NCBI GenBank assembly: GCA_052325545.1
Contig: JBKQUP010000009.1
Coordinates: forward strand, 13,486-77,485
Origin: Thermoplasmata archaeon
GTDB taxonomy: Archaea; Thermoplasmatota; Thermoplasmata; Lutacidiplasmatales; UBA184
DNA length: 64,000 nucleotides
Reading direction: 5' to 3'
How positions within the stretch are numbered: the first letter of the stretch is position 1; each line of letters starts with the position of its first letter. Both the position numbers and the translations under genes were made by a program. Shown here piece after piece: positions 2,128 through 46,415 of this stretch. The notes under the pieces are model-generated. The model had not been told where the DNA came from, ran no database searches, and worked only from the letters and a program-made list of their open reading frames with translations.

Positions 2128-3594
<1,467 letters not shown>

Positions 3595-3906
3595 TTTTGA
3601 GCACACGATTCGCGTGTGCGGGAATACTTGTGGTCGGAAACCGATCTTTGCTGACTGGCGGAATTGCTCTTTACGTTAGATGAGCTACTTCGCGTACGTT
3701 TCTCGTACTTGTCTCCCCCGTCAGTCCCGAGAGGTCACTCCCCGTCTCCAGGGAGGGGTTCTCAGGGCTCCACGCCCCCATTGGGCCATCTGTGGCGTCG
3801 CCTTGGAGGAGCACGGATCACGGGGTCCCCGGCTCGCCGTGGCGGCGTCGCCATGCCGCGCTTCCGAAGAAGCGGGCGTAGCGTTCGAACGAAGGGGGTC
3901 CGGTAT

Positions 3907-4659
3907 TTAACGGGCGCCACCGGCCGCTGCTCCTCCCATAGAGGCCTCGCCGTTCTCGAGACGGCGCACCACGAGCGGCACCTCGAGGAGCGACGTGATC
4001 TCGGGGGGGTCCCACCCAAACCCGAACCCCTCGCGGTTGAGCCAGACCCCGTACATCCCGACGGCCGAGGCGGCCTTCGCGTCGGTGTGGGCGAGGTTGC
4101 CGACGTAGACCGTTTGCGCGGCGGGCACGTTCATCCGCGATAGGGTCCGGCGGAAGATCTCGGGGTCTGGCTTCTCGACCCCCTCGGTCCCCGAGGAGAC
4201 GATGCGCGAGAAGTAGTCGAGGATCCCCACCCGGTCGAGGATGCGGCGCACAGCCGCCTCACTGGTCGAGTTCGAGACCACGCCGAGCGCCCGGCGCTGC
4301 GCGCGCAGCGTGTCGAGGCAGCGACGCGTGTCGGAGTAGAGACGGACCGGTCGCTCGGTCTCGAAGACCGCGGCGTTGAACTTGAGGGTCGTGGCCTCGT
4401 CCACCTCTCTTTCGGCGGCGCGCGAGAGTGTCCGACGCCAGAACTCCACCATCGCGGCCTCTCCGTGCACGCCGGGGGGCCGGGCGTCCAGCTCCTCCTC
4501 TACTTCCAGGAACGCGTGGCGGAGCTGGTCCGCGTCGAAATCGAGGAAGAACCGCCGGGCGACCTCGGCCCACCCGTCGAAGTCCTTGTGGTCGATCAGC
4601 GTTCCGCCGAGGTCGAACAGCACCGCCCGGACCCGCACCGGCCCTCCCTCCCCCCGCAC
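3907..4659 (-). CDS. HAD-superfamily hydrolase
   Basis: VRAVLFDLGGTLIDH DxD motif at the N-terminus; 250 aa; GTG start. Confidence 0.7.
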   Translation of the reverse strand: MRGEGGPVRVRAVLFDLGGTLIDHKDFDGWAEVARRFFLDFDADQLRHAFLEVEEELDARPPGVHGEAAMVEFWRRTLSRAAEREVDEATTLKFNAAVFETERPVRLYSDTRRCLDTLRAQRRALGVVSNSTSEAAVRRILDRVGILDYFSRIVSSGTEGVEKPDPEIFRRTLSRMNVPAAQTVYVGNLAHTDAKAASAVGMYGVWLNREGFGFGWDPPEITSLLEVPLVVRRLENGEASMGGAAAGGAR

Positions 4660-5460: not shown

Positions 5461-6759
5461 TCACGCCTCCCCCTTGGCTTCCTCGACCGGCTTCGCGACG
5501 ACCGGCACGTCCCCGAGCGGTCGGTAGACCAGGTTGACCGCGCCGGTCCCGAGGGTGATCGGCTGTCCGACGATGATGTTCTCGGCCACGCCCTTGAGCT
5601 CGTCGACCTCGCCGGTGATGGCGGCCTTCAAGAGATGGGCCGCGGTGATCTCGAACGCCGCCCGGGCGAGCACGCTCGACTTCTTGCCCGAGATCCCGTG
5701 CCGGCCGATCGCGCGGATGTCGCCTTCGTTCGTCATCACGTCCGCGACGAGCATCAGGTGGCGGATGTCGACCCCGAGACCCTGCTCCGCGAGCGTCCGG
5801 TTCGCCTCGTGGATGAGCGCGGCGCGCGCCGCCTCGACCCCGTAGACGCGGTAGATCTCGAAGACCGAGTTCGTGGTCGTCCGGACCCCGTCCACGCCGG
5901 GGATCTCGATGACCCCCTCGAGGTTCGAGCCCTCGGTGTAGATCACGTACTCGTCCTTCTCCTTGCGGATGAGGGCGCGCTGGATCCCCTCGACGCCCTT
6001 GATCTGGATCCGCTTCGCCTCCTCGCTCGCGATGAGGAGCTTCTTGAACGGCATCTCCTCGACCATCTCCTCGCGGCGGGACTTCGTCGCCCCGACGGTC
6101 GCCTCCTTCAAGTGGACCTCGAACGAACGGGTCTCTCCGCTCCCCGAGCCCGGTTTCACCTCGAACAGACGGGCGTCCAGGTTCGCGACGAGCGCCGCCT
6201 CGAGCTCGGAGCGCTTCACGCCCCGCGCCTCGAGGAGCGCGGCCTGTGGGGAGACGACGACCTTCAGGTCCTCGACGACGGTCCCGATCGACGCGACGTC
6301 GGGGACGGTCGTGACCTCGACCTGGAGGGCGATCTTCTGGACCGCCTCCCGGTCGCCGCGCAGCTTCTTTTCGACATGCACGGTCATCATCGGCGTCGAC
6401 GGGACGCGCCGCGCGTCCACGAGCTCGATCAGGCGCGGGAGCCCGAGCGTGACGTTCATCTCGGCGACCCCGGCGTAGTGGAACGTCCTTAACGTCATCT
6501 GCGTCCCCGGTTCGCCGATCGACTGGGCGGCGATGATCCCGACGGACTCGTGCGCGTCGACGCCCGCCTTCCGGAAGCGGCGCGCGACCTCGCGGACGAC
6601 CTTGGAGGCGTCCGACGGAGCGAGCCGAAGGCTCTGCAACTTCGCGCGGAGGTCCTCGACGAGCGACGGCGGGAGCGGGATCCCCGTCTCGCGACGAGCG
6701 GTCTCCTGGATGCGGGTGGCGAGGTCGCGGACCGGGACCTTCTTCTCGTCGGTCGCCAT
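5461..6759 (-). CDS. rpoA2: DNA-directed RNA polymerase subunit A''
   Basis: Track ORF 5461..6768 trimmed to ATG 6759, 5 nt after the rpoA' stop; [17 protein letters not shown] motif. Confidence 0.95.
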
Positions 6760-12500: not shown

Positions 12501-13245
12501 GGACCCCGTCCTTCTTCTTCTCCACGACCGTGAGGGAGCGGTACCCGCCGCGCTGGCTGAACACTTTCGCGCTCTCGATGGGGGTGCCGTAGCGCTCGTT
12601 GAACTCGGCGAAGATCCGGTTGGGCGCGAGGTCCTCGAGGCTGATGATGACCCGTTCGGTCCCGCCGATGATGGCGTACCCTCCGGGGTCGAGCGGGTCC
12701 TCGCCGTACTCGACGAGCTTCGCCCGATACTCGTCGTCCGAGAGCCAGATCTGGTCGTCCTCGGAGATCTTGTAGCGGTTCAGGTTGCAGGGGCGGCTCT
12801 TGACCATGATGGGGAGGTCGCCGATGTGCACGTCCTCGGGGGCGCGCTCGACGCCGTTCTCGACGACGGTGACCTTGAGGAAGATGGGGGCCTGGTAGGT
12901 GAGGTTCCGGAGCCTCGCCTCCATGGGGGTGAGGGTCGGCTTCGAGCCGACCGGCTCCTTCACGAACGGAGCGCCGATGAAGATGGTCGGTTCGGCCGAG
13001 GGGTTGACGTTCCCCCGGGCGTCCCGGCGGCGGCCGACGCGCACGTAGATCGAGCTCTTCGTCTTCTGGACGTCCAGTCGGATGACGCCGCGTTCGGTCG
13101 AATCCTCGCTGACGCGCGCGTCGTCGACGATGCGCTGCATCCTCGAGTTCGGGTTGTCCTTGGTCGGCAGGAAGTCGTTGAAGCTCGCCAAGTGGTGGTT
13201 GACGATCGAGCGTTCCCGGAAGAACGCGTCCACAATTTCTCGCAT
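9574..13245 (-). CDS. rpoB: DNA-directed RNA polymerase subunit B (unsplit)
   Basis: 1223 aa single ORF. Unsplit B is characteristic of Thermoplasmata/Crenarchaeota rather than methanogens or halophiles. Confidence 0.95.
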
Positions 13246-13614: not shown

Positions 13615-13757
13615 CGGGCCCGGGGGGACGTCCGGAGCGACCTCGCGGTTGGCGCGAGGAGGCTCGTTCGAACCCCCGACCACCTGGTTAAAAGCCAGAT
13701 GCTCTTTGTAGGGCCACCCGGCGAGCCGGACGGCCAACCTAACTGAGCTACGGGCCC
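13615..13757 (-). tRNA. tRNA-Lys (anticodon UUU) interrupted by two putative non-canonical introns (about 31 nt in the D-loop, about 38 nt in the T-loop)
   Basis: Manual fold of the minus strand: acceptor GGGCCCG/CGGGCCC, D-stem GCTC/GAGC, anticodon arm TCTGG-CTTTTAA-CCAGG, variable TGGTC, T-stem GGGGG/CCCCC with TTCGAA(C) T-loop, discriminator G. The two extra segments form internal hairpins (CCGG-CTCG-CCGG; CCTCGCG-CCAAC-CGCGAGG). Mature length is 74 nt; there is no anticodon-loop intron. Confidence 0.6.
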
Positions 13758-14914: not shown

Positions 14915-15229
14915 ATGACGTCCGGACCTACTACGCCCATCCATGCCCCGGTCCCGCAGACCGTCTCCAGCATCCCACCTGCCGGCCGACCCGACCCGAG
15001 TTCGGGCGCACCCGTCGTGAAGATGGTGGGGATGATCCTCGAAGGGGTCGGCGCGGTCGTCTCTGGCCTGAGCCTTTCGTTCCTGATTCCGGTCATCAAC
15101 GGCAGCTCATCGAACTATCAATCCTCCGAGACCGCGCTCTTCAACACCCTGGAGGCCGGAATTATCATCATCGGGATCGGCGTGATCGTGCTCGGCATCG
15201 GCGCCTACTTGGAATCTCGACATCGCTGA
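14915..15229 (+). CDS. hypothetical small membrane protein (two predicted TM helices)
   Basis: Track ORF 14714..15229 trimmed to ATG 14915; the C-terminus MVGMILEGVGAVVSGLSLSFLIPV...AGIIIIGIGVIVLGIGAYL is strongly hydrophobic. Confidence 0.4.
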   Translation: MTSGPTTPIHAPVPQTVSSIPPAGRPDPSSGAPVVKMVGMILEGVGAVVSGLSLSFLIPVINGSSSNYQSSETALFNTLEAGIIIIGIGVIVLGIGAYLESRHR

Positions 15230-40549: not shown

Positions 40550-41110
40550 TCAGCGGTCGCGCTCGACCGGCTCGTCGAGACGCCACTCCGCGAACCCCCG
40601 GCCGCCCGAGGTCCGTCGGACCGAGCGCACCACGCCCGACCACCGCACGTCGGGCGGGAGTTCGCCGGAATCGATACGGTCGAGGACCGTCCGGAACCGA
40701 AGGCGGAGGTCGGAGAACGGGTCCTCCTCGCCGGGCCGGACCCAGGAGCCGGCCGCGCGGACGACGCGGACGGTGCCTTCGTGGGTGGCCCACACGCCGA
40801 CGCGAGAGGCCCTGGTCCCGTCGGTGCGGGCCGCGAGCGCCGCGGCGGCCTTCTCGGACGGCAGGACGACCGCGACCCAGTCCCCCCACGCGCGCCGCTT
40901 GAGCGCCTGCACGAGCACCGCGCGGCTCCCGGAGACCTTCGCCTCGACGAGGCCGACCTCGTCCCCCCGCCGGGCCACGAGGTCGAAGTAATCGGCGGAG
41001 TCCGGGTTCGGATAGACCCGGTAGCCTTGCTGCTCAAGGAAGGTCGCGGCGGTCCGGACGACCTCTTTTTCGGAGACCCGGGGCGGGCGAGGTGCCGCGG
41101 CGCGGCTCAC
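40550..41110 (-). CDS. PD-(D/E)xK nuclease-fold protein, Hjc (Holliday-junction resolvase)-like N-domain with about 90-aa C-terminal extension
   Basis: GTG at 41110 overlaps the mutL TGA (GTGA). EKEVVRTAATFLEQQGYRVY...DYFDLVARRGDEVGLVEAKVS reproduces the E...D...ExK pattern of Hjc-type resolvases. The track ORF 40550..41662 is a frame-extension into mutL. Confidence 0.5.
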   Translation of the reverse strand: MSRAAAPRPPRVSEKEVVRTAATFLEQQGYRVYPNPDSADYFDLVARRGDEVGLVEAKVSGSRAVLVQALKRRAWGDWVAVVLPSEKAAAALAARTDGTRASRVGVWATHEGTVRVVRAAGSWVRPGEEDPFSDLRLRFRTVLDRIDSGELPPDVRWSGVVRSVRRTSGGRGFAEWRLDEPVERDR

Positions 41111-42873
41111 GGACCGCTCCTCAGGAACCAGCGGTCGAGGCGCGACCGGGGGATCCCGAGCACGATCGGGCGTCCGTGGGGACAGGAGTAGGCCGCTTCG
41201 GGAAGGGCGTGCAGCGTCGTGAGCACGCGGGAGAACTCCTCCGACGTAACAACGTCCCCCGCCCGAAGGGCCGCGTGGCAGGCGACGGTCGCGGCGCGTC
41301 GCTCCTCGAGCCCGTCGGGGAGCGTGGGGCGCCCACCGGTCGCGAGCTCGTCCAGGAGCTCCGCGACGGCCTCGGGCCGCGCGGACCGGCCCCGGTATGC
41401 GGGGACCGACCGGACGAGGAACGACTCGGGACCGAACGGCTCGATGTCGAATCCCGCGGCCCGGACCGTCTCGCCGTGGGCTTCGAACGTGCTTCGCTCG
41501 GCGCCCGTGAGACGGACGGTGACCGGAGCGACCAGGGTCTGTCGCTGCAGGGTCCCGGAGTGGCGCAGCTCCTCGTAGAGCACGCGCTCGCTCGCCGCGT
41601 GCTGGTCGATCAGCACGAGGCCTTCGTCGCTCTCGGCCACCCAATAGAGGGCGTGAAGGCACCCAAGCAGCGTGAGCCGCGGATGCCCCGCCGCCGCCGG
41701 AAGCGGGGTCGGGGGTGGGGGCGCGGCGACCGGACCTTCCAGGGTACGTTGGACGCCCGGATGTCCCGCGGAGGCCGTGGGGACGCCTCTCACCAGGGGC
41801 GGCGCGCCTCCGAGGGGCGGTCGAGCCGCGGCCCGGGCGGCCGGAAGCTCCGCCACCTGGGGGGCGGAGACGAGGGCCTCGCGGACGCGCAGCCGGATGG
41901 CGTCGAGGATGTCCCGTTCGCGGGCGAAGCGCACCTCGCGTTTCGTCGGGTGGACGTTCACGTCGAGCCGGTCGGGGTCGACCTCGAGATGGAGGACGCC
42001 CACCGGGAACCGGGTGCGGGGCAGGTAGTCGCCGAAGGCGAGGCGGACGTTCTGGGCGATCGTGCGGGAAGTGACCGAGCGGCCGTTGACGGCGACGAAC
42101 AGTCCTCGCGACGAGGCGGCCGCCACCCCGGGCCGGCCGAGCGACCCGAAGAGACGGCCCCCGGGGATCTCGGCGGAAAGCTCGAACGACGACGTGAGGA
42201 ACCCGGGGCCGAGGACCCGGGCCGCGGCGTCCTTCAGGTCGTGGGCGGGGGGATACGTTCCCGCCTCGCGGCCCTCCGATTCCACGCGAAGGCCCACCTG
42301 CGGACGCGCGAGGTAGAGACGCTCGACCGTCTGCAGCACCTCGACCTGCTCCGCGGGAGCGCCTTTGAGGAACTTGCGCCGGGCCGGGGTGTTGAAGAAG
42401 AGGTCCTCGACCTCGACGGTCGTCCCCGGGGCCCGCGGGGCGGAGAACCGACCGGCGACCGCCCCTCCGACGACCGAGATCCCCTCGGCGACCTCCCGGT
42501 CGGGGGGCCGGGAGAAAAGGCGGAACCGGGAGACCGAGGCGATCGCCGCGAGCGCCTCCCCCCGGAAACCGAGGGTCCCGATCCGCTCGACCGGACCTTC
42601 CGGCGGGAGCTTGCTCGTGGCATGCCGCTCGACCGCGAGCTCGAGCTCCTCCGGCGGGATCCCCGACCCGTCGTCGGCGACCTCGATCCGCTCGAGCCCC
42701 CCGCCCGAGAGTCGGATCGTGACGAGCGAAGCGCCCGCGTCCACGGCGTTCTCGACGAGCTCCTTCACGACGGACGCCGGGCGTTCCACGACCTCGCCCG
42801 CGGCGATCCGCTCGACCGTTTCGCTCGAGAGCTTCCGGATCGGCCGACGCGAGTTGGGGGGCGGCGTCGTCAC
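41107..42873 (-). CDS. mutL: DNA mismatch repair protein MutL (endonuclease-type, DQHA(x)2E(x)4E motif present)
   Basis: 588 aa; GHKL ATPase N-domain (ELVENAVDAGA); C-domain LIDQHAASERVLYEEL. The GTG start overlaps the mutS TGA (GTGA). Confidence 0.9.
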   Translation of the reverse strand: MTTPPPNSRRPIRKLSSETVERIAAGEVVERPASVVKELVENAVDAGASLVTIRLSGGGLERIEVADDGSGIPPEELELAVERHATSKLPPEGPVERIGTLGFRGEALAAIASVSRFRLFSRPPDREVAEGISVVGGAVAGRFSAPRAPGTTVEVEDLFFNTPARRKFLKGAPAEQVEVLQTVERLYLARPQVGLRVESEGREAGTYPPAHDLKDAAARVLGPGFLTSSFELSAEIPGGRLFGSLGRPGVAAASSRGLFVAVNGRSVTSRTIAQNVRLAFGDYLPRTRFPVGVLHLEVDPDRLDVNVHPTKREVRFARERDILDAIRLRVREALVSAPQVAELPAARAAARPPLGGAPPLVRGVPTASAGHPGVQRTLEGPVAAPPPPTPLPAAAGHPRLTLLGCLHALYWVAESDEGLVLIDQHAASERVLYEELRHSGTLQRQTLVAPVTVRLTGAERSTFEAHGETVRAAGFDIEPFGPESFLVRSVPAYRGRSARPEAVAELLDELATGGRPTLPDGLEERRAATVACHAALRAGDVVTSEEFSRVLTTLHALPEAAYSCPHGRPIVLGIPRSRLDRWFLRSGP

Positions 42874-45497
42874 GGGGGCTCCTCCTTCGGGGACGACCCG
42901 ACGGATGCCCGGCGCTTGAGATCGCGCAGCGTTCGGGCGGCTTCCTCAGGACCGAGGTGTTCGAGGTCGAGCTGCCGGAGCTCGTCGACCACCGGGTGTT
43001 CGGAGGCTCCCTCCGAAAGCAGCACCGCCTGGGTGTACCGCGGCCCGCGACGGCGAGAGCCCTTCGGAGCCGTCGGCACGACGCTTTCGGTCTCGAGGCG
43101 ATGGAGAAGGCGTTCGGCCTCCTCGAGGACCCCCTCCGGGACCCCCGCGAGGCGCGCCACGTGAACGCCGTAGCTCCGGTCGGTCGCGCCCGGAACCAGA
43201 CGGTGGAGGAAGACGATCCCTTCCGGGCCCTCGTGGACGGCGAAGTGGGCGTTCTCGGCCGCCGAGAGCCCCCGGACCAGGTCGGTGAGCTGATGGTAGT
43301 GGGTCGCGAGCAGGCAACGGGCCCGGGTCGCGTCGTGCAGGTGCCTCAGCGTCGCCCAGGCGATCGCGAGCCCATCGAACGTGCTGGTACCACGACCCAC
43401 CTCGTCGAGCAGGACGAGGGACCGGGCGTCGGCCGAGCGCAGGATCTCGGCGACCTCGCTCATCTCCACCATGAAGCTCGACTTTCCCCGGCCGATCTCG
43501 TCCGTGAAGCCCATCCGGGTGAACAGCTGGGTGACGAGGCCGATCCGGGCGAACTTGGCCGGCAAGAACGACCCCGCCTGCGCGAGGACGACCAGGAGGC
43601 CGACCTGGCGCATGTACGTCGACTTCCCCGACATGTTCGGGCCGGTCAGCACCAACATCCGTCGCCGGTCCGGGTCGAGGTCCAGGTCGTTCGGGACGAA
43701 CGATTCCCCGAGGACCCGGTCGAGCACCGGATGGCGCCCGTCGCGCACCACGAGGACCGAGGAATCGTCGACCGTGGGCCGGACGTAGCCTCGGGTCTGG
43801 GCGAGGTGCGCGAACGTGGCGAGCGCGTCCAGCTCCCCGACGGCGCGGCTGACCCGGTGGACCGCCGGTACGTGACGTTCGACGGAATCGAGGAGCTCCT
43901 CCCAGCGGGTCGCCTCGGCGGTCTTGATCCCGTCCCGCGCTTCCAGGATGCGTCGCTCGATCTCCTCGAGCCGGTCCGACGTGAACCGCTCGGCCTGGGC
44001 GACCGTCTGGCGCCGGCGGAAGTGCGGCGGGACCCGGGCCAAGTGGGGCTTGGTGACCTCGAAGTAGTAGCCGAAGACCTGGTTGTAGCCGACCTTGAGC
44101 GTCCGGATGCCCGAGGCCTCTTGCTCGGACCGCTCGAGGGCGGTCATCTCGCGGAGCGCCGAGCGCTCGGCGTCGCGCCACCGGTCCACCTCGGGGGCGT
44201 GGCCGGGCCGGAACAGCTCGCCCTCGTCCTGCGTGGCCGCGGGATTCTCGGGCAACGCTCCGGCGAGGAACGGGACCAGCCCGGGCGGGGGGGCTAGCTC
44301 CCCGGCGAGCATCGTGAGCCGGACGGAGGACCCACCCTCGGTCAGGCTGCGGCCGAGCGCTTCCGCGGCCTCGAGGCCGGCCCGCAGCGCCACGAGCTCG
44401 GCCGGTCGTACCCGGCGCCCGGCGACCCGGGCCGCGATGCGAGAAAGGTCCGGGACCGACTTGAGCCGCGCGCGCCATCCTTCGAGGGCGGCGCCGCGGT
44501 CGACGAGCGACTGCACCGCGTCCTGACGAACGGCGATCGCCGACGCGTCGGCGAGCGGGTTCGTCAACCAGAACGCGAGCGTGCGCCGGCCCGGGGCGGT
44601 TACGGTCTCGTCCCAGGTCCCGAGAAGGGTGACGCCTTTCGCGTCGTCCGGGTTCATCGGCCGGTTGATCTCGAGGTGTCGGAGCGTCTTCGCGTCCAGA
44701 ACGAGCCGCCGTCCCCCCGCGCCCCGCTCGACGAGGTCGAGATGGGGAAGGAGGCGGGGCTGGGTCGCCCGCAAATAGGCCGCCAATCGGCGGTCGGCCT
44801 CGAGGACCTCTTCGGCCAGGTCCGCTTCACCGCGGAGAGCGCTCGGGAGCTCTCCGGCGACGGCGGGAGCTGGGGCGGCCTCGAGCCGAGCGGACGGGAA
44901 CTCGCGTCGCAGGGCGGCGACGAGAGGGGGTGCCGCCGACTCCTCCCCGACGGCCCATAGGATCTCGCGCGGCTGGAACGCGGCGAGGGAGGAGACGATA
45001 CCCTCCGCACCGTGCCCGTCCGCCGACCCATGGTACCATTCTCCGGTGGTGATGTCGACCGCCGCGTAGGCTCCGAGCTTCCGGGTCGGGGCGACGACGC
45101 TGACGAGGAAGCTGTGGTCGGAGCCCCCGAGGATGCGGTCCTCGACCGCCGTGCCCGGCGTGACGACCCGCGTGACCTCCCGCCGGACCAGGCCCTTCGC
45201 GAAGCGCGGGTCCTCGACCTGGTCGCAGATCGCCACCTTGTAGCCCTTCCGCACGAGACGACCAAGGTACGTCTCCACCGAGTGGTGGGGAACGCCCGCC
45301 ATCGGGGTCCGGACGCCCTGGGCGTCCGCGGCCCGGGCGGTCAAGACCACGTCGACCTCGCGCGACAGGAGCCGCGCGTCGTCCCCGTAGGTCTCGTAGA
45401 AGTCCCCCACGCGGAAGAGCACGAGGTGGCCGGGGTACCGTGCCTTGACACCCTCGTACTGTTCTAGCAGAGGGGTCAGGGGCAGCGGTTCGGGCAT
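42870..45497 (-). CDS. mutS: DNA mismatch repair protein MutS (bacterial MutS1 type)
   Basis: 875 aa, ATG verified; TGPNMSGKSTYMRQV Walker A; N-terminal mismatch-recognition domain. Confidence 0.9.
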   Translation of the reverse strand: MPEPLPLTPLLEQYEGVKARYPGHLVLFRVGDFYETYGDDARLLSREVDVVLTARAADAQGVRTPMAGVPHHSVETYLGRLVRKGYKVAICDQVEDPRFAKGLVRREVTRVVTPGTAVEDRILGGSDHSFLVSVVAPTRKLGAYAAVDITTGEWYHGSADGHGAEGIVSSLAAFQPREILWAVGEESAAPPLVAALRREFPSARLEAAPAPAVAGELPSALRGEADLAEEVLEADRRLAAYLRATQPRLLPHLDLVERGAGGRRLVLDAKTLRHLEINRPMNPDDAKGVTLLGTWDETVTAPGRRTLAFWLTNPLADASAIAVRQDAVQSLVDRGAALEGWRARLKSVPDLSRIAARVAGRRVRPAELVALRAGLEAAEALGRSLTEGGSSVRLTMLAGELAPPPGLVPFLAGALPENPAATQDEGELFRPGHAPEVDRWRDAERSALREMTALERSEQEASGIRTLKVGYNQVFGYYFEVTKPHLARVPPHFRRRQTVAQAERFTSDRLEEIERRILEARDGIKTAEATRWEELLDSVERHVPAVHRVSRAVGELDALATFAHLAQTRGYVRPTVDDSSVLVVRDGRHPVLDRVLGESFVPNDLDLDPDRRRMLVLTGPNMSGKSTYMRQVGLLVVLAQAGSFLPAKFARIGLVTQLFTRMGFTDEIGRGKSSFMVEMSEVAEILRSADARSLVLLDEVGRGTSTFDGLAIAWATLRHLHDATRARCLLATHYHQLTDLVRGLSAAENAHFAVHEGPEGIVFLHRLVPGATDRSYGVHVARLAGVPEGVLEEAERLLHRLETESVVPTAPKGSRRRGPRYTQAVLLSEGASEHPVVDELRQLDLEHLGPEEAARTLRDLKRRASVGSSPKEEPP

Positions 45498-45556: not shown

Positions 45557-45640
45557 CGCTGAGGGGGAGATTTGAACTCCCGTGGCGGAACCGCCACCAG
45601 CTTTCAAGGCTGGCGCCTTGCCGGGCTAGGCTACCTCAGC
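45557..45640 (-). tRNA. tRNA-Ser (anticodon UGA), class II with long variable arm
   Basis: Manual fold: acceptor GCTGAGG/CCTCAGC, D-arm GCCT-AGCCCGGCA-AGGC, anticodon arm CCAGC-CTTGAAA-GCTGG, variable arm GGCGG-TT-CCGCC, T-arm GGGAG-TTCAAAT-CTCCC, discriminator G. Confidence 0.85.
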
Positions 45641-45706
45641 GCATCGGGCAGAGCGGAGCCGGGAGGAATAAACCCTCCCTTTGGGAGGGGGTCCGGGGCG
45701 GAGGAG

Positions 45707-45808
45707 TGCAGGTGCCGGGACATCCGCGCGAGACCTGGTCGGGTCTCGCGTTTCGAACCCGGGTAGTCAGCTTGGAGGGCTGACATCCTACCACTAGATT
45801 ACACCTGC
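45707..45808 (-). tRNA. tRNA-Gly-like (anticodon UCC) with about 31-nt non-canonical intron in the T-loop; unusual C33
   Basis: Manual fold: acceptor GCAGGTG/CACCTGC, D-arm ATCT-AGTGGTA-GGAT, anticodon arm TCAGC-CCTCCAA-GCTGA, T-stem CCGGG/CCCGG enclosing TTCGAA + hairpin insert (CGCGAGACC-CGA-GGTCTCGCG) + T, discriminator A. Confidence 0.55.
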
Positions 45809-45848
45809 ACGGCCGCCGCCGGACCGAGGGCGCGACCGCCCTGCGTGG

Positions 45849-46415
45849 TTAATGCTTTTCGTTTGCAGTGTGGGCCGCCGGAGCCGAAAGGTCGAGGAGC
45901 GCCACCCGTTCGAGGACGAGGCCTTCCCACCCCGATGGCGGGACCGCGCTCCGCTCCGCGGCCTCGATCCCGAGCCGCTCGAGGACCTGCTCGTCCACCG
46001 GCCTCGGGTACGCGCTCGGGTCCAGCGTGAGCTCGAACCGTTCGAGGAGAACGGCGGGGTCCTGCGGGCGCTCGGTGACCAGGACGAACTGCTCGGTCGC
46101 ATCGGAGACCCCGACCTTCGCGAGGGCCCGCGGAAGCTGGTCGTCGCCGGCGACGTACAGGGCGAACTCCGCGCCCCGGTCCCGGAGGCGGATCTCGCCG
46201 CGGGTGCGGGCACGCCCGAGATGCGCCCAGGCGGAGAGGAGGTGTCGCTCTCCCGCCACCGCGCGCGCGTCGAAGAGGGCGACGAGCGCCGGCGACTCCT
46301 TGGCCAGCTCCCGGAGGGTCCGGATGATCGCGTCCGTCGCGGGGCTACCGGGACGGGAGCGACGGGCACCGACCGCTCGGACCGGGCGTTCCTCGGGCGG
46401 GGGCAGAGGGGTCAT
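45849..46415 (-). CDS. cgi121: KEOPS complex subunit Cgi121
   Basis: 188 aa, ATG verified; Cgi121-like pattern (ALVALFDARAVAGERHLLSA...). Confidence 0.6.
   Translation of the reverse strand: MTPLPPPEERPVRAVGARRSRPGSPATDAIIRTLRELAKESPALVALFDARAVAGERHLLSAWAHLGRARTRGEIRLRDRGAEFALYVAGDDQLPRALAKVGVSDATEQFVLVTERPQDPAVLLERFELTLDPSAYPRPVDEQVLERLGIEAAERSAVPPSGWEGLVLERVALLDLSAPAAHTANEKH

Follow-up and report, generated by a model that had tools for sequence, protein, structure and literature searches.

A conserved T-loop intron and a variable residue 33 in the tRNA-Gly(UCC) gene of soil and peat Thermoplasmata

Results

A tRNA-Gly(UCC) gene interrupted in its T-loop

In the 64-kb stretch of Thermoplasmata archaeon DNA analyzed here (contig JBKQUP010000009.1; its whole length is referred to as the window), the minus strand carries, in this order, a tRNA-Gly(UCC) gene (45808..45707), a 66-nt spacer, and a tRNA-Ser(UGA) gene (45640..45557). 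The T-loop of the tRNA-Gly gene is interrupted between positions 59 and 60 by a strict bulge-helix-bulge (BHB) intron of 31 nt, and its anticodon loop has C rather than U at position 33. Our preferred reading, to which we assign a probability of roughly 85%, is that both are functional archaeal tRNA genes with separate promoters and that tRNA-Gly has a BHB intron processed by the splicing endonuclease EndA and a tolerated C33. The anatomy of the gene, the strict BHB geometry of the insert, the restoration of a cloverleaf upon its removal, and the covarying conservation of the structure in relatives are all direct observations. The elements of the gene pair are as follows.

45557..45640, minus strand: tRNA-Ser(UGA) (ARAGORN call; Rfam tRNA match of 61.8 bits over the full model length)
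45707..45808, minus strand: tRNA-Gly(UCC), whole gene, 102-nt precursor (sequence read directly)
45752..45808, minus strand: tRNA-Gly exon 1, positions 1 to 59, with G1 at 45808 and the 3' end ...CCGGG UUCG AA (read directly)
45721..45751, minus strand: 31-nt BHB intron between positions 59 and 60, A-CGCGAGACC-CGACCA-GGUCUCGCG-CGGA-UG (fold and homologue alignment)
45707..45720, minus strand: tRNA-Gly exon 2, comprising U60, CCCGG, CACCUGC, and A73 (read directly)
45774..45776, minus strand: anticodon UCC (sequence; ARAGORN on the spliced sequence)
45778..45772, minus strand: anticodon loop CCUCCAA (sequence)
45777, minus strand: C33, the 5' neighbor of the anticodon (sequence)

The tRNA-Ser(UGA) gene is, as a preliminary description of this DNA had stated, canonical: a class II tRNA with a long variable arm, a standard cloverleaf, U33, and G73, intronless and without an encoded CCA. 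The tRNA-Gly gene is not called by ARAGORN, and its Rfam match is partial (25 bits against a 29-bit threshold). Read directly, it has the acceptor stem GCAGGUG/CACCUGC, with G1:C72 and C2:G71 present; the D arm AUCU-AGUGGUA-GGAU (D stem AUCU/GGAU); a 5-bp anticodon stem, UCAGC/GCUGA, closing the 7-nt loop; a 4-nt class I variable loop; the T stem CCGGG/CCCGG; and A73, again with no encoded CCA. The two strands of the T stem are separated by 38 nt instead of the expected 7. The perfect stems and the CCUCCAA loop with C33 that had been reported earlier were all recovered at these coordinates. The gene is an archaeal-type tRNA-Gly(UCC) in every feature tested except U33, and because these other features and the pattern of conservation described below fit a functional tRNA, we class it as tRNA-Gly despite C33.

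The T-loop insert has the strict BHB structure

We folded the T-arm and the full precursor by minimum free energy. The 5-bp T stem serves as the outer helix (h). Within it, U54-U55-C56-G57 (UUCG) pairs with the CGGA at the 3' end of the intron to give a central 4-bp helix, which is flanked by two 3-nt bulges on opposite strands, A58-A59|A and UG|U60. A 9-bp hairpin, CGCGAGACC/GGUCUCGCG, forms the inner helix (h'). The 102-nt precursor folds at -49.3 kcal/mol (z = -4.36), and none of 200 shuffled sequences folded as well. In the canonical case, at 37/38, the cut made by the archaeal splicing endonuclease follows the second base of each BHB bulge. Placing the cuts here by the same rule agrees with published 59/60 examples (PMC3239211), and excision of the 31 nt leaves a 71-nt cloverleaf with perfect stems and the T-loop UUCGAAU, which ARAGORN calls as tRNA-Gly(tcc).

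The arrangement repeats that of a canonical archaeal 37/38 intron, with a 5-bp stem, four loop bases paired to the intron's 3' end, and an insertion point after the sixth base of a 7-nt loop, so that the T-arm is built like an anticodon arm with an intron. It differs in lying in the T-loop, with the consequence that the elbow between the T-loop and D-loop cannot form before splicing.

BHB geometry by itself is poor proof of an intron in DNA this GC rich, and we rejected it as such. Candidate BHB motifs on both strands of the window were excised, one or two at a time, and the products were submitted to ARAGORN. BHB-like motifs (h ≥ 4, h' ≥ 4) occur 267 times in the window and about 215 times in shuffled sequence, a nearly equal frequency. 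The tRNA-Gly case is more than chance because excision restores a perfect tRNA, the precursor fold has a z score of -4.36, and about 100 independent sequences keep the structure through covarying changes. We conclude that the insert is a strict archaeal hBHBh' intron at 59/60. The preliminary description had recognized the 31-nt T-loop insertion and its 9-bp hairpin as an intron, and both the strict BHB and the perfect spliced tRNA bear this out.

The same exhaustive search yielded no credible hidden tRNA in the window other than tRNA-Gly and a tRNA-Lys described below. Three further calls were dismissed as artifacts: one that removes 22 nt from the variable arm of tRNA-Ser, and two with poor stems, a "tRNA-Val(cac)" at 5769..5884 and a "tRNA-Ser(cga)" at about 60.9 to 61.1 kb.

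The intron is conserved across related genomes and metagenomes

We searched the adjacent MutS protein against contigs representing one genome per species and retrieved 13 metagenome-assembled genomes (MAGs) labeled "Thermoplasmata archaeon." They come from soil and peat, their MutS proteins are 61 to 89% identical to that of the window, and their GC content is 64 to 73%, compared with 68.7% for the window. One of the 13, isolate AcS4-93, is from the study that defined the Lutacidiplasmatales/TMEG, whose genomes have about 69% GC (PMC9287336), and the related MAGs probably belong to this group; the window itself most likely derives from the same order or one close to it. The order tRNA-Gly, tRNA-Ser, MutS is kept at 10 of the 13 loci, and all 10 carry the insert at the same site. 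In two related MAGs (L002 and L004), a different gene on the opposite strand lies directly upstream of MutS and a C33 tRNA-Gly stands elsewhere in the same 14.6-kb locus, a layout that points to local rearrangement.

A scan of metagenomes with the anticodon-arm pattern GGATGTCAGCCYTCCAAGCTGA returned at least 120 loci, all from soil or peat samples. The 59/60 intron is present in every parsable gene with a GCAGG[U/C]G acceptor stem, which amounts to more than 100 of the 120 metagenome loci listed, and no intronless gene with that acceptor stem occurs among those 120. Three intronless matches have the acceptor stem GCGGYCA and belong to another lineage, and one match is not a tRNA (among the matches listed). 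The syntenic MAG loci (10 of 10) and these metagenome loci together uphold the earlier suggestion of a lineage-wide feature, and the alignment with tRNA-Gly genes of relatives, which had been proposed as a check, shows the intron position to be conserved.

The intron sequence drifts while its pairing is kept. Among 101 unique sequences of T-arm plus intron, 98% have an intron of 29 to 32 nt, and in 87 the central helix joins UUCG to CGGA, CGAA, or CGAG. Each of the nine inner-helix pairs is paired in 80 to 96% of these sequences, with several pair types at each; pair 3, for example, is C-G in 31, G-C in 30, G-U in 10, and A-U in 7. When the 3' partner is slid by one base, six of the nine pairs fall to 14 to 61% paired and three stay at 80 to 89%; a slide of two bases lowers eight of the nine to 13 to 40% and leaves one at 84%. 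From 42 homologues, RNAalifold independently arrived at the same architecture of T stem, helix, bulges, and hairpin, and eight of the nine inner-helix pairs show compensatory double changes.

The exons, by comparison, are nearly frozen: across 96 unique genes, only 8 of 71 positions vary (6, 16, 20, 33, 45, 46, 57, and 67). Insert-free homologues and a decaying copy, which the preliminary description had named as the marks of a pseudogene, were not seen in this set. Frozen exons around a drifting intron that keeps its pairing are, on this sequence evidence, the signature of a functional gene whose intron appears to be selected for shape and not for sequence.

A second gene in the window, tRNA-Lys(UUU), has two introns

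The preliminary description had noted the same intron site in a tRNA-Lys gene 32 kb away, and a 59/60 intron is indeed found there. The gene lies upstream of rpoH-rpoB and contains a second intron in its D-loop:

13615..13757, minus strand: tRNA-Lys(UUU) with two introns, upstream of rpoH-rpoB (partial Rfam match of 18.7 bits; sequence)
13735..13707, minus strand: 29-nt D-loop intron of tRNA-Lys, with central helix UAGG/CCUA, a 9-bp inner helix, and a 1-bp outer helix
13666..13629, minus strand: 38-nt strict BHB intron of tRNA-Lys at 59/60, with central helix UUCG/CGGA

ARAGORN misses the unspliced gene, and excision of both introns gives a perfect 76-nt tRNA-Lys(UUU). The T-loop introns of tRNA-Lys and tRNA-Gly share the CGGA that pairs with UUCG and are otherwise unrelated in sequence; with only this obligatory motif in common, a shared origin by transposition has no support.

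Nine relatives of the tRNA-Lys gene (L201 to L209) were fetched through their RpoB homologues, which range from 91% to 67% identity and include MAGs labeled Methanomassiliicoccales; in these relatives, too, the gene precedes rpoH. All nine have insertions at both the D-loop and the T-loop sites. The strict BHB parse followed by ARAGORN rebuilds tRNA-Lys in four of them; the remaining five, though interrupted at these sites as well, show mismatches or a bulge in the inner helix. In L208 (locus positions 1022-1195; ERZ25039477 contig_17467; RpoB identity, 68%) the gene has three introns, because a strict BHB at 37/38, the canonical site, is added to the other two. None of the nine was found by ARAGORN with the intron option switched on. 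More generally, no interrupted tRNA of the window or of L201 to L209 is picked up by ARAGORN, with or without that option, or by Rfam at its gathering threshold.

Position 33 alternates between C and U

C33 is present at 67 of the 120 metagenome loci listed and at 7 of 11 genomic loci, and because it recurs in this way it is not a sequencing error. It is also not the conserved lineage trait that it might have been taken for. Of 96 unique genes, 51 have C and 45 have U at this position, and none has a purine; the closest relative by MutS (L009, 84% identity) has U33. Fitch parsimony on a 75-taxon MutS tree gives, by a rough count, about 11 changes at position 33, with several U33 taxa inside C33 clades and vice versa. 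C33 is found only alongside the U6:A67 variant of the acceptor stem (50 of 50), while U33 accompanies U:A, U·G, and C:G. In the window itself, tRNA-Ser(UGA) and tRNA-Lys(UUU) both have U33. GGA is the rarest glycine codon in five window genes, accounting for 21 of 185 Gly codons and about 0.9% of all codons. We prefer to read C33 as a tolerated pyrimidine variant in a low-demand GGA decoder that drifts between C and U under GC pressure.

Spacer and flanking elements

The following elements accompany the two genes.

45641..45706, minus strand: spacer of 66 nt (lengths cluster at 61 to 66 nt in 110 homologous loci)
45689..45673, minus strand: 7-bp hairpin CCCUCCC-AAA-GGGAGGG (sequence)
45667..45672, minus strand: TTTATT box (consensus gGgtTTattcc at about -32 from the tRNA-Ser 5' end)
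45847..45855, minus strand: conserved GCATTAACC box, about 40 to 47 nt upstream of tRNA-Gly (consensus aAA.cattaacc in 106 unique upstream regions)

A TTTATT or TTTAAT box is conserved in 93 unique upstream regions from genomes of about 70% GC, and from its position and conservation it is likely a TATA-like element of an independent tRNA-Ser promoter. The 66-nt length and the TTTATT of the preliminary description stand, but its two hairpins cannot coexist: the second, GGGAGG/CCUCCC, which forms around TTTATT, uses one arm of the first. The sequence of the first hairpin is not conserved in homologous loci.

The box upstream of tRNA-Gly, AAAGCATTAACC, is conserved at 40 to 50 nt from the gene and might be its promoter element, a weak suggestion, since the box overlaps the stop codon of an open reading frame (45849..46415) and its conservation is for that reason ambiguous. 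Directly 5' of tRNA-Gly, a CCGT (45809-45812, minus strand) is strongly conserved in the 106 unique upstream regions. In the window its GT pairs with an AC located after the 3' strand of the acceptor stem, which lengthens that helix to 9 bp and may serve as a leader-trailer processing signal.

Other features of the window

Directly downstream of tRNA-Ser are genes for a bacterial-type MutS (875 aa) and MutL (588 aa) (41107-45497, minus strand), whose stop and start codons overlap. Outside the Thermoplasmata MAGs, the best matches to MutS are bacterial, at 33 to 42% identity, which suggests an ancient acquisition from Bacteria. A complete archaeal 16S rRNA gene lies at 2128-3595 (minus strand), with no 23S or 5S gene within the 64-kb window; the rRNA genes appear to be unlinked. 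Rfam matches to the C/D-box small RNAs sR28, sR44, and sR47 (15046-15176, minus strand, and 12640-12688, plus strand) reach 15 to 16 bits against thresholds of 39 to 45 and include UGAUGA boxes; they may be unannotated guide RNAs or chance matches. A single-copy match to CRISPR-DR29 (4270-4300, minus strand; 26.8 bits against a threshold of 39) is probably due to chance.

Discussion

Relation to known introns and enzymes

BHB introns outside 37/38, including those at 59/60 and in the D-loop, and tRNAs with multiple introns are known mainly from Crenarchaeota, Nanoarchaeota, and ARMAN-2, and their hosts have broad-specificity endonucleases (PMC4090602, PMC3239211, PMC6379350). The 59/60 site is among the noncanonical positions listed for archaeal genomes rich in such introns, and BHB introns there are cut by EndA (PMC3239211, PMC4090602). 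Narrow-specificity EndA requires the strict 3-4-3 hBHBh' motif (PMC3239211, PMC6379350). Euryarchaeota with α4 or α'2 EndA are described as having only single, canonically placed introns (PMC4090602). Cluster II Euryarchaeota encode the narrow α'2 enzyme and no other (PMC5829648), and the solved EndA of Thermoplasma acidophilum is of the α'2 type (PMC6379350). The EndA sequence of M. jannaschii was confirmed against PDB 1A79.

The closest parallels to the tRNA-Gly intron are pre-tRNA-Pro(GGG) and pre-tRNA-Cys(GCA) of ARMAN-2 (Candidatus Micrarchaeum), which share the 59/60 T-loop site and the BHB logic (PMC3239211, PMC4090602). The ARMAN-2 tRNA-Pro intron is a strict hBHBh' like that of the window, and the test of excision and refolding works for both. 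The 59/60 intron of ARMAN-2 tRNA-Cys is a relaxed hBH, in contrast to the consistently strict type seen here. The host also differs, being a member of the Thermoplasmata, which are cluster II Euryarchaeota, and the intron, here an ancient one, is fixed throughout a clade of order rank. The tRNA-Lys D-loop intron, with its weak outer helix, resembles introns in the multi-intron tRNAs of Thermoproteales and the D-loop HBh' intron of Methanopyrus kandleri pre-tRNA-Glu (PMC5829648); here, however, the multi-intron tRNAs are found in Thermoplasmata and in MAGs labeled Methanomassiliicoccales. Literature searches of incomplete coverage turned up no specific report of noncanonical tRNA introns in Thermoplasmata or Methanomassiliicoccales, which speaks weakly for novelty. 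These genes are probably annotated by tRNAscan-SE 2 without comment.

The kind of intron and its site are therefore known, and C33 has precedents. What is mildly surprising is the host lineage, since reviews attribute to Euryarchaeota only single introns at the canonical position. The free flipping between C and U at position 33 is likewise mildly surprising.

Proposed processing and points against it

In the processing that we propose, tRNA-Gly(UCC) would be transcribed as a 102-nt precursor in which the T-arm mimics an intron-bearing anticodon arm. EndA would recognize the BHB shape wherever in the tRNA it is placed and would cut at 59|i1 and i31|60. An RtcB-type ligase would then join the exons into a 71-nt tRNA with the T-loop UUCGAAU, and CCA would be added after splicing. 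Strict T-loop introns would fit cleavage by a narrow enzyme wherever the motif sits; the tRNA-Lys D-loop intron, with its weak outer helix, is a harder case for such an enzyme.

Several points weigh against this account. Splicing, and with it the sequence of the mature tRNA, is predicted from the DNA. The α4 and α'2 enzymes are said to cleave the strict BHB only at the canonical position (PMC3239211, PMC4090602), which would be a problem if taken literally. In four homologues G57A disrupts one of the central-helix pairs, and five others (L012, L114, L135, L179, and L180) have TT in place of T before the 3' strand of the T stem, which predicts a 3' bulge of 4 nt or, alternatively, a spliced T-loop of 8 nt. 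The comparison was made at the level of loci. As to position 33, elongator tRNAs otherwise have U33 almost without exception (PMC5041475), C33 is presumed to be nearly neutral, and the figure of 11 changes comes from a neighbor-joining tree with a midpoint root.

Alternative readings of C33 and of the gene

U33 has known exceptions in eukaryotic initiator tRNA-Met (C33) and Candida tRNA-Ser(CAG) (G33) (PMC5041475, PMC9023262), and Sulfolobales tRNA-Cys(GCA) has C33 clade-wide (PMC7668247). Like the Sulfolobales tRNA-Cys and the eukaryotic initiator, the tRNA-Gly(UCC) studied here encodes C33 in a well-formed and conserved tRNA; unlike them, it is a glycine tRNA of another lineage in which the residue is polymorphic among close relatives and not fixed.

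C33 might instead be adaptive, either tuning decoding by UCC (GGA versus GGG) or conferring resistance to an anticodon-loop nuclease. Its presence in large, deep clades (50 of 75 taxa) and not at the tips of the tree only, together with its strict link to U6:A67, speaks for such a role. Position 33 has nevertheless changed to U repeatedly, in separate branches and with the anticodon arm otherwise unchanged, and the link to U6:A67 may reflect shared ancestry alone. We regard an adaptive C33 as unlikely.

A somewhat more doubtful proposal is that a cytidine deaminase converts C33 to U33 after transcription, making it irrelevant whether the genome has C or U. The position alternates between C and U only, and it does so repeatedly on the tree while the rest of the exons is nearly frozen, as editing would allow. 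C-to-U editing of a tRNA also has a precedent in Archaea, namely, the conversion of C8 to U8 by CDAT8 in Methanopyrus kandleri. Against this, the variable positions 16, 20, and 45 drift between C and U as well, with no need for editing. Eukaryotic initiator tRNAs, moreover, tolerate C33 with no editing known, and the genes for Sulfolobales tRNA-Cys encode it (PMC9023262, PMC7668247). If true, deamination of C33 to U33 would add a new site to the tRNA editing known from Archaea. A less radical possibility is that the ribosome and the tRNA-Gly(UCC) of this clade could work without the canonical U-turn contact of U33.

That tRNA-Gly is a pseudogene or relic hit by an insertion, or that the insert is never removed, is very improbable: the lack of an ARAGORN call, the subthreshold Rfam score, and the departure from a near-universal U33 would suit it, but the exons are nearly invariant, compensatory changes preserve the pairing of a diverging intron, excision leaves every stem perfect, the gene order persists at MutS identities as low as 61%, and the intronless matches listed have another acceptor stem and belong to another lineage, so that the conservation data rule out both a pseudogene and an assembly error.

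Implications

Under the reading that we prefer, of two functional tRNA genes with a processed intron and a tolerated C33 in tRNA-Gly, the first consequence concerns annotation. MAG annotation that relies on ARAGORN or Rfam would report soil Thermoplasmata as lacking tRNA-Gly(UCC) and tRNA-Lys(UUU), the decoders of GGA and AAA, and claims of genome completeness would be affected. The second concerns the splicing enzyme. An order-level euryarchaeal clade has long kept strict BHB introns at 59/60 along with D-loop introns, which fits the idea that the enzyme needs the shape of the motif and not its position, and the introns of this clade offer a natural test set for that idea. If true, an ancient and fixed set of introns, at 59/60 and in the D-loop and with up to three per gene, would contradict the rule that α'2 enzymes go with a single canonical intron. 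Finally, the C/U polymorphism at position 33 would be a natural experiment, of a rare sort, on the need of an elongator tRNA for U33.

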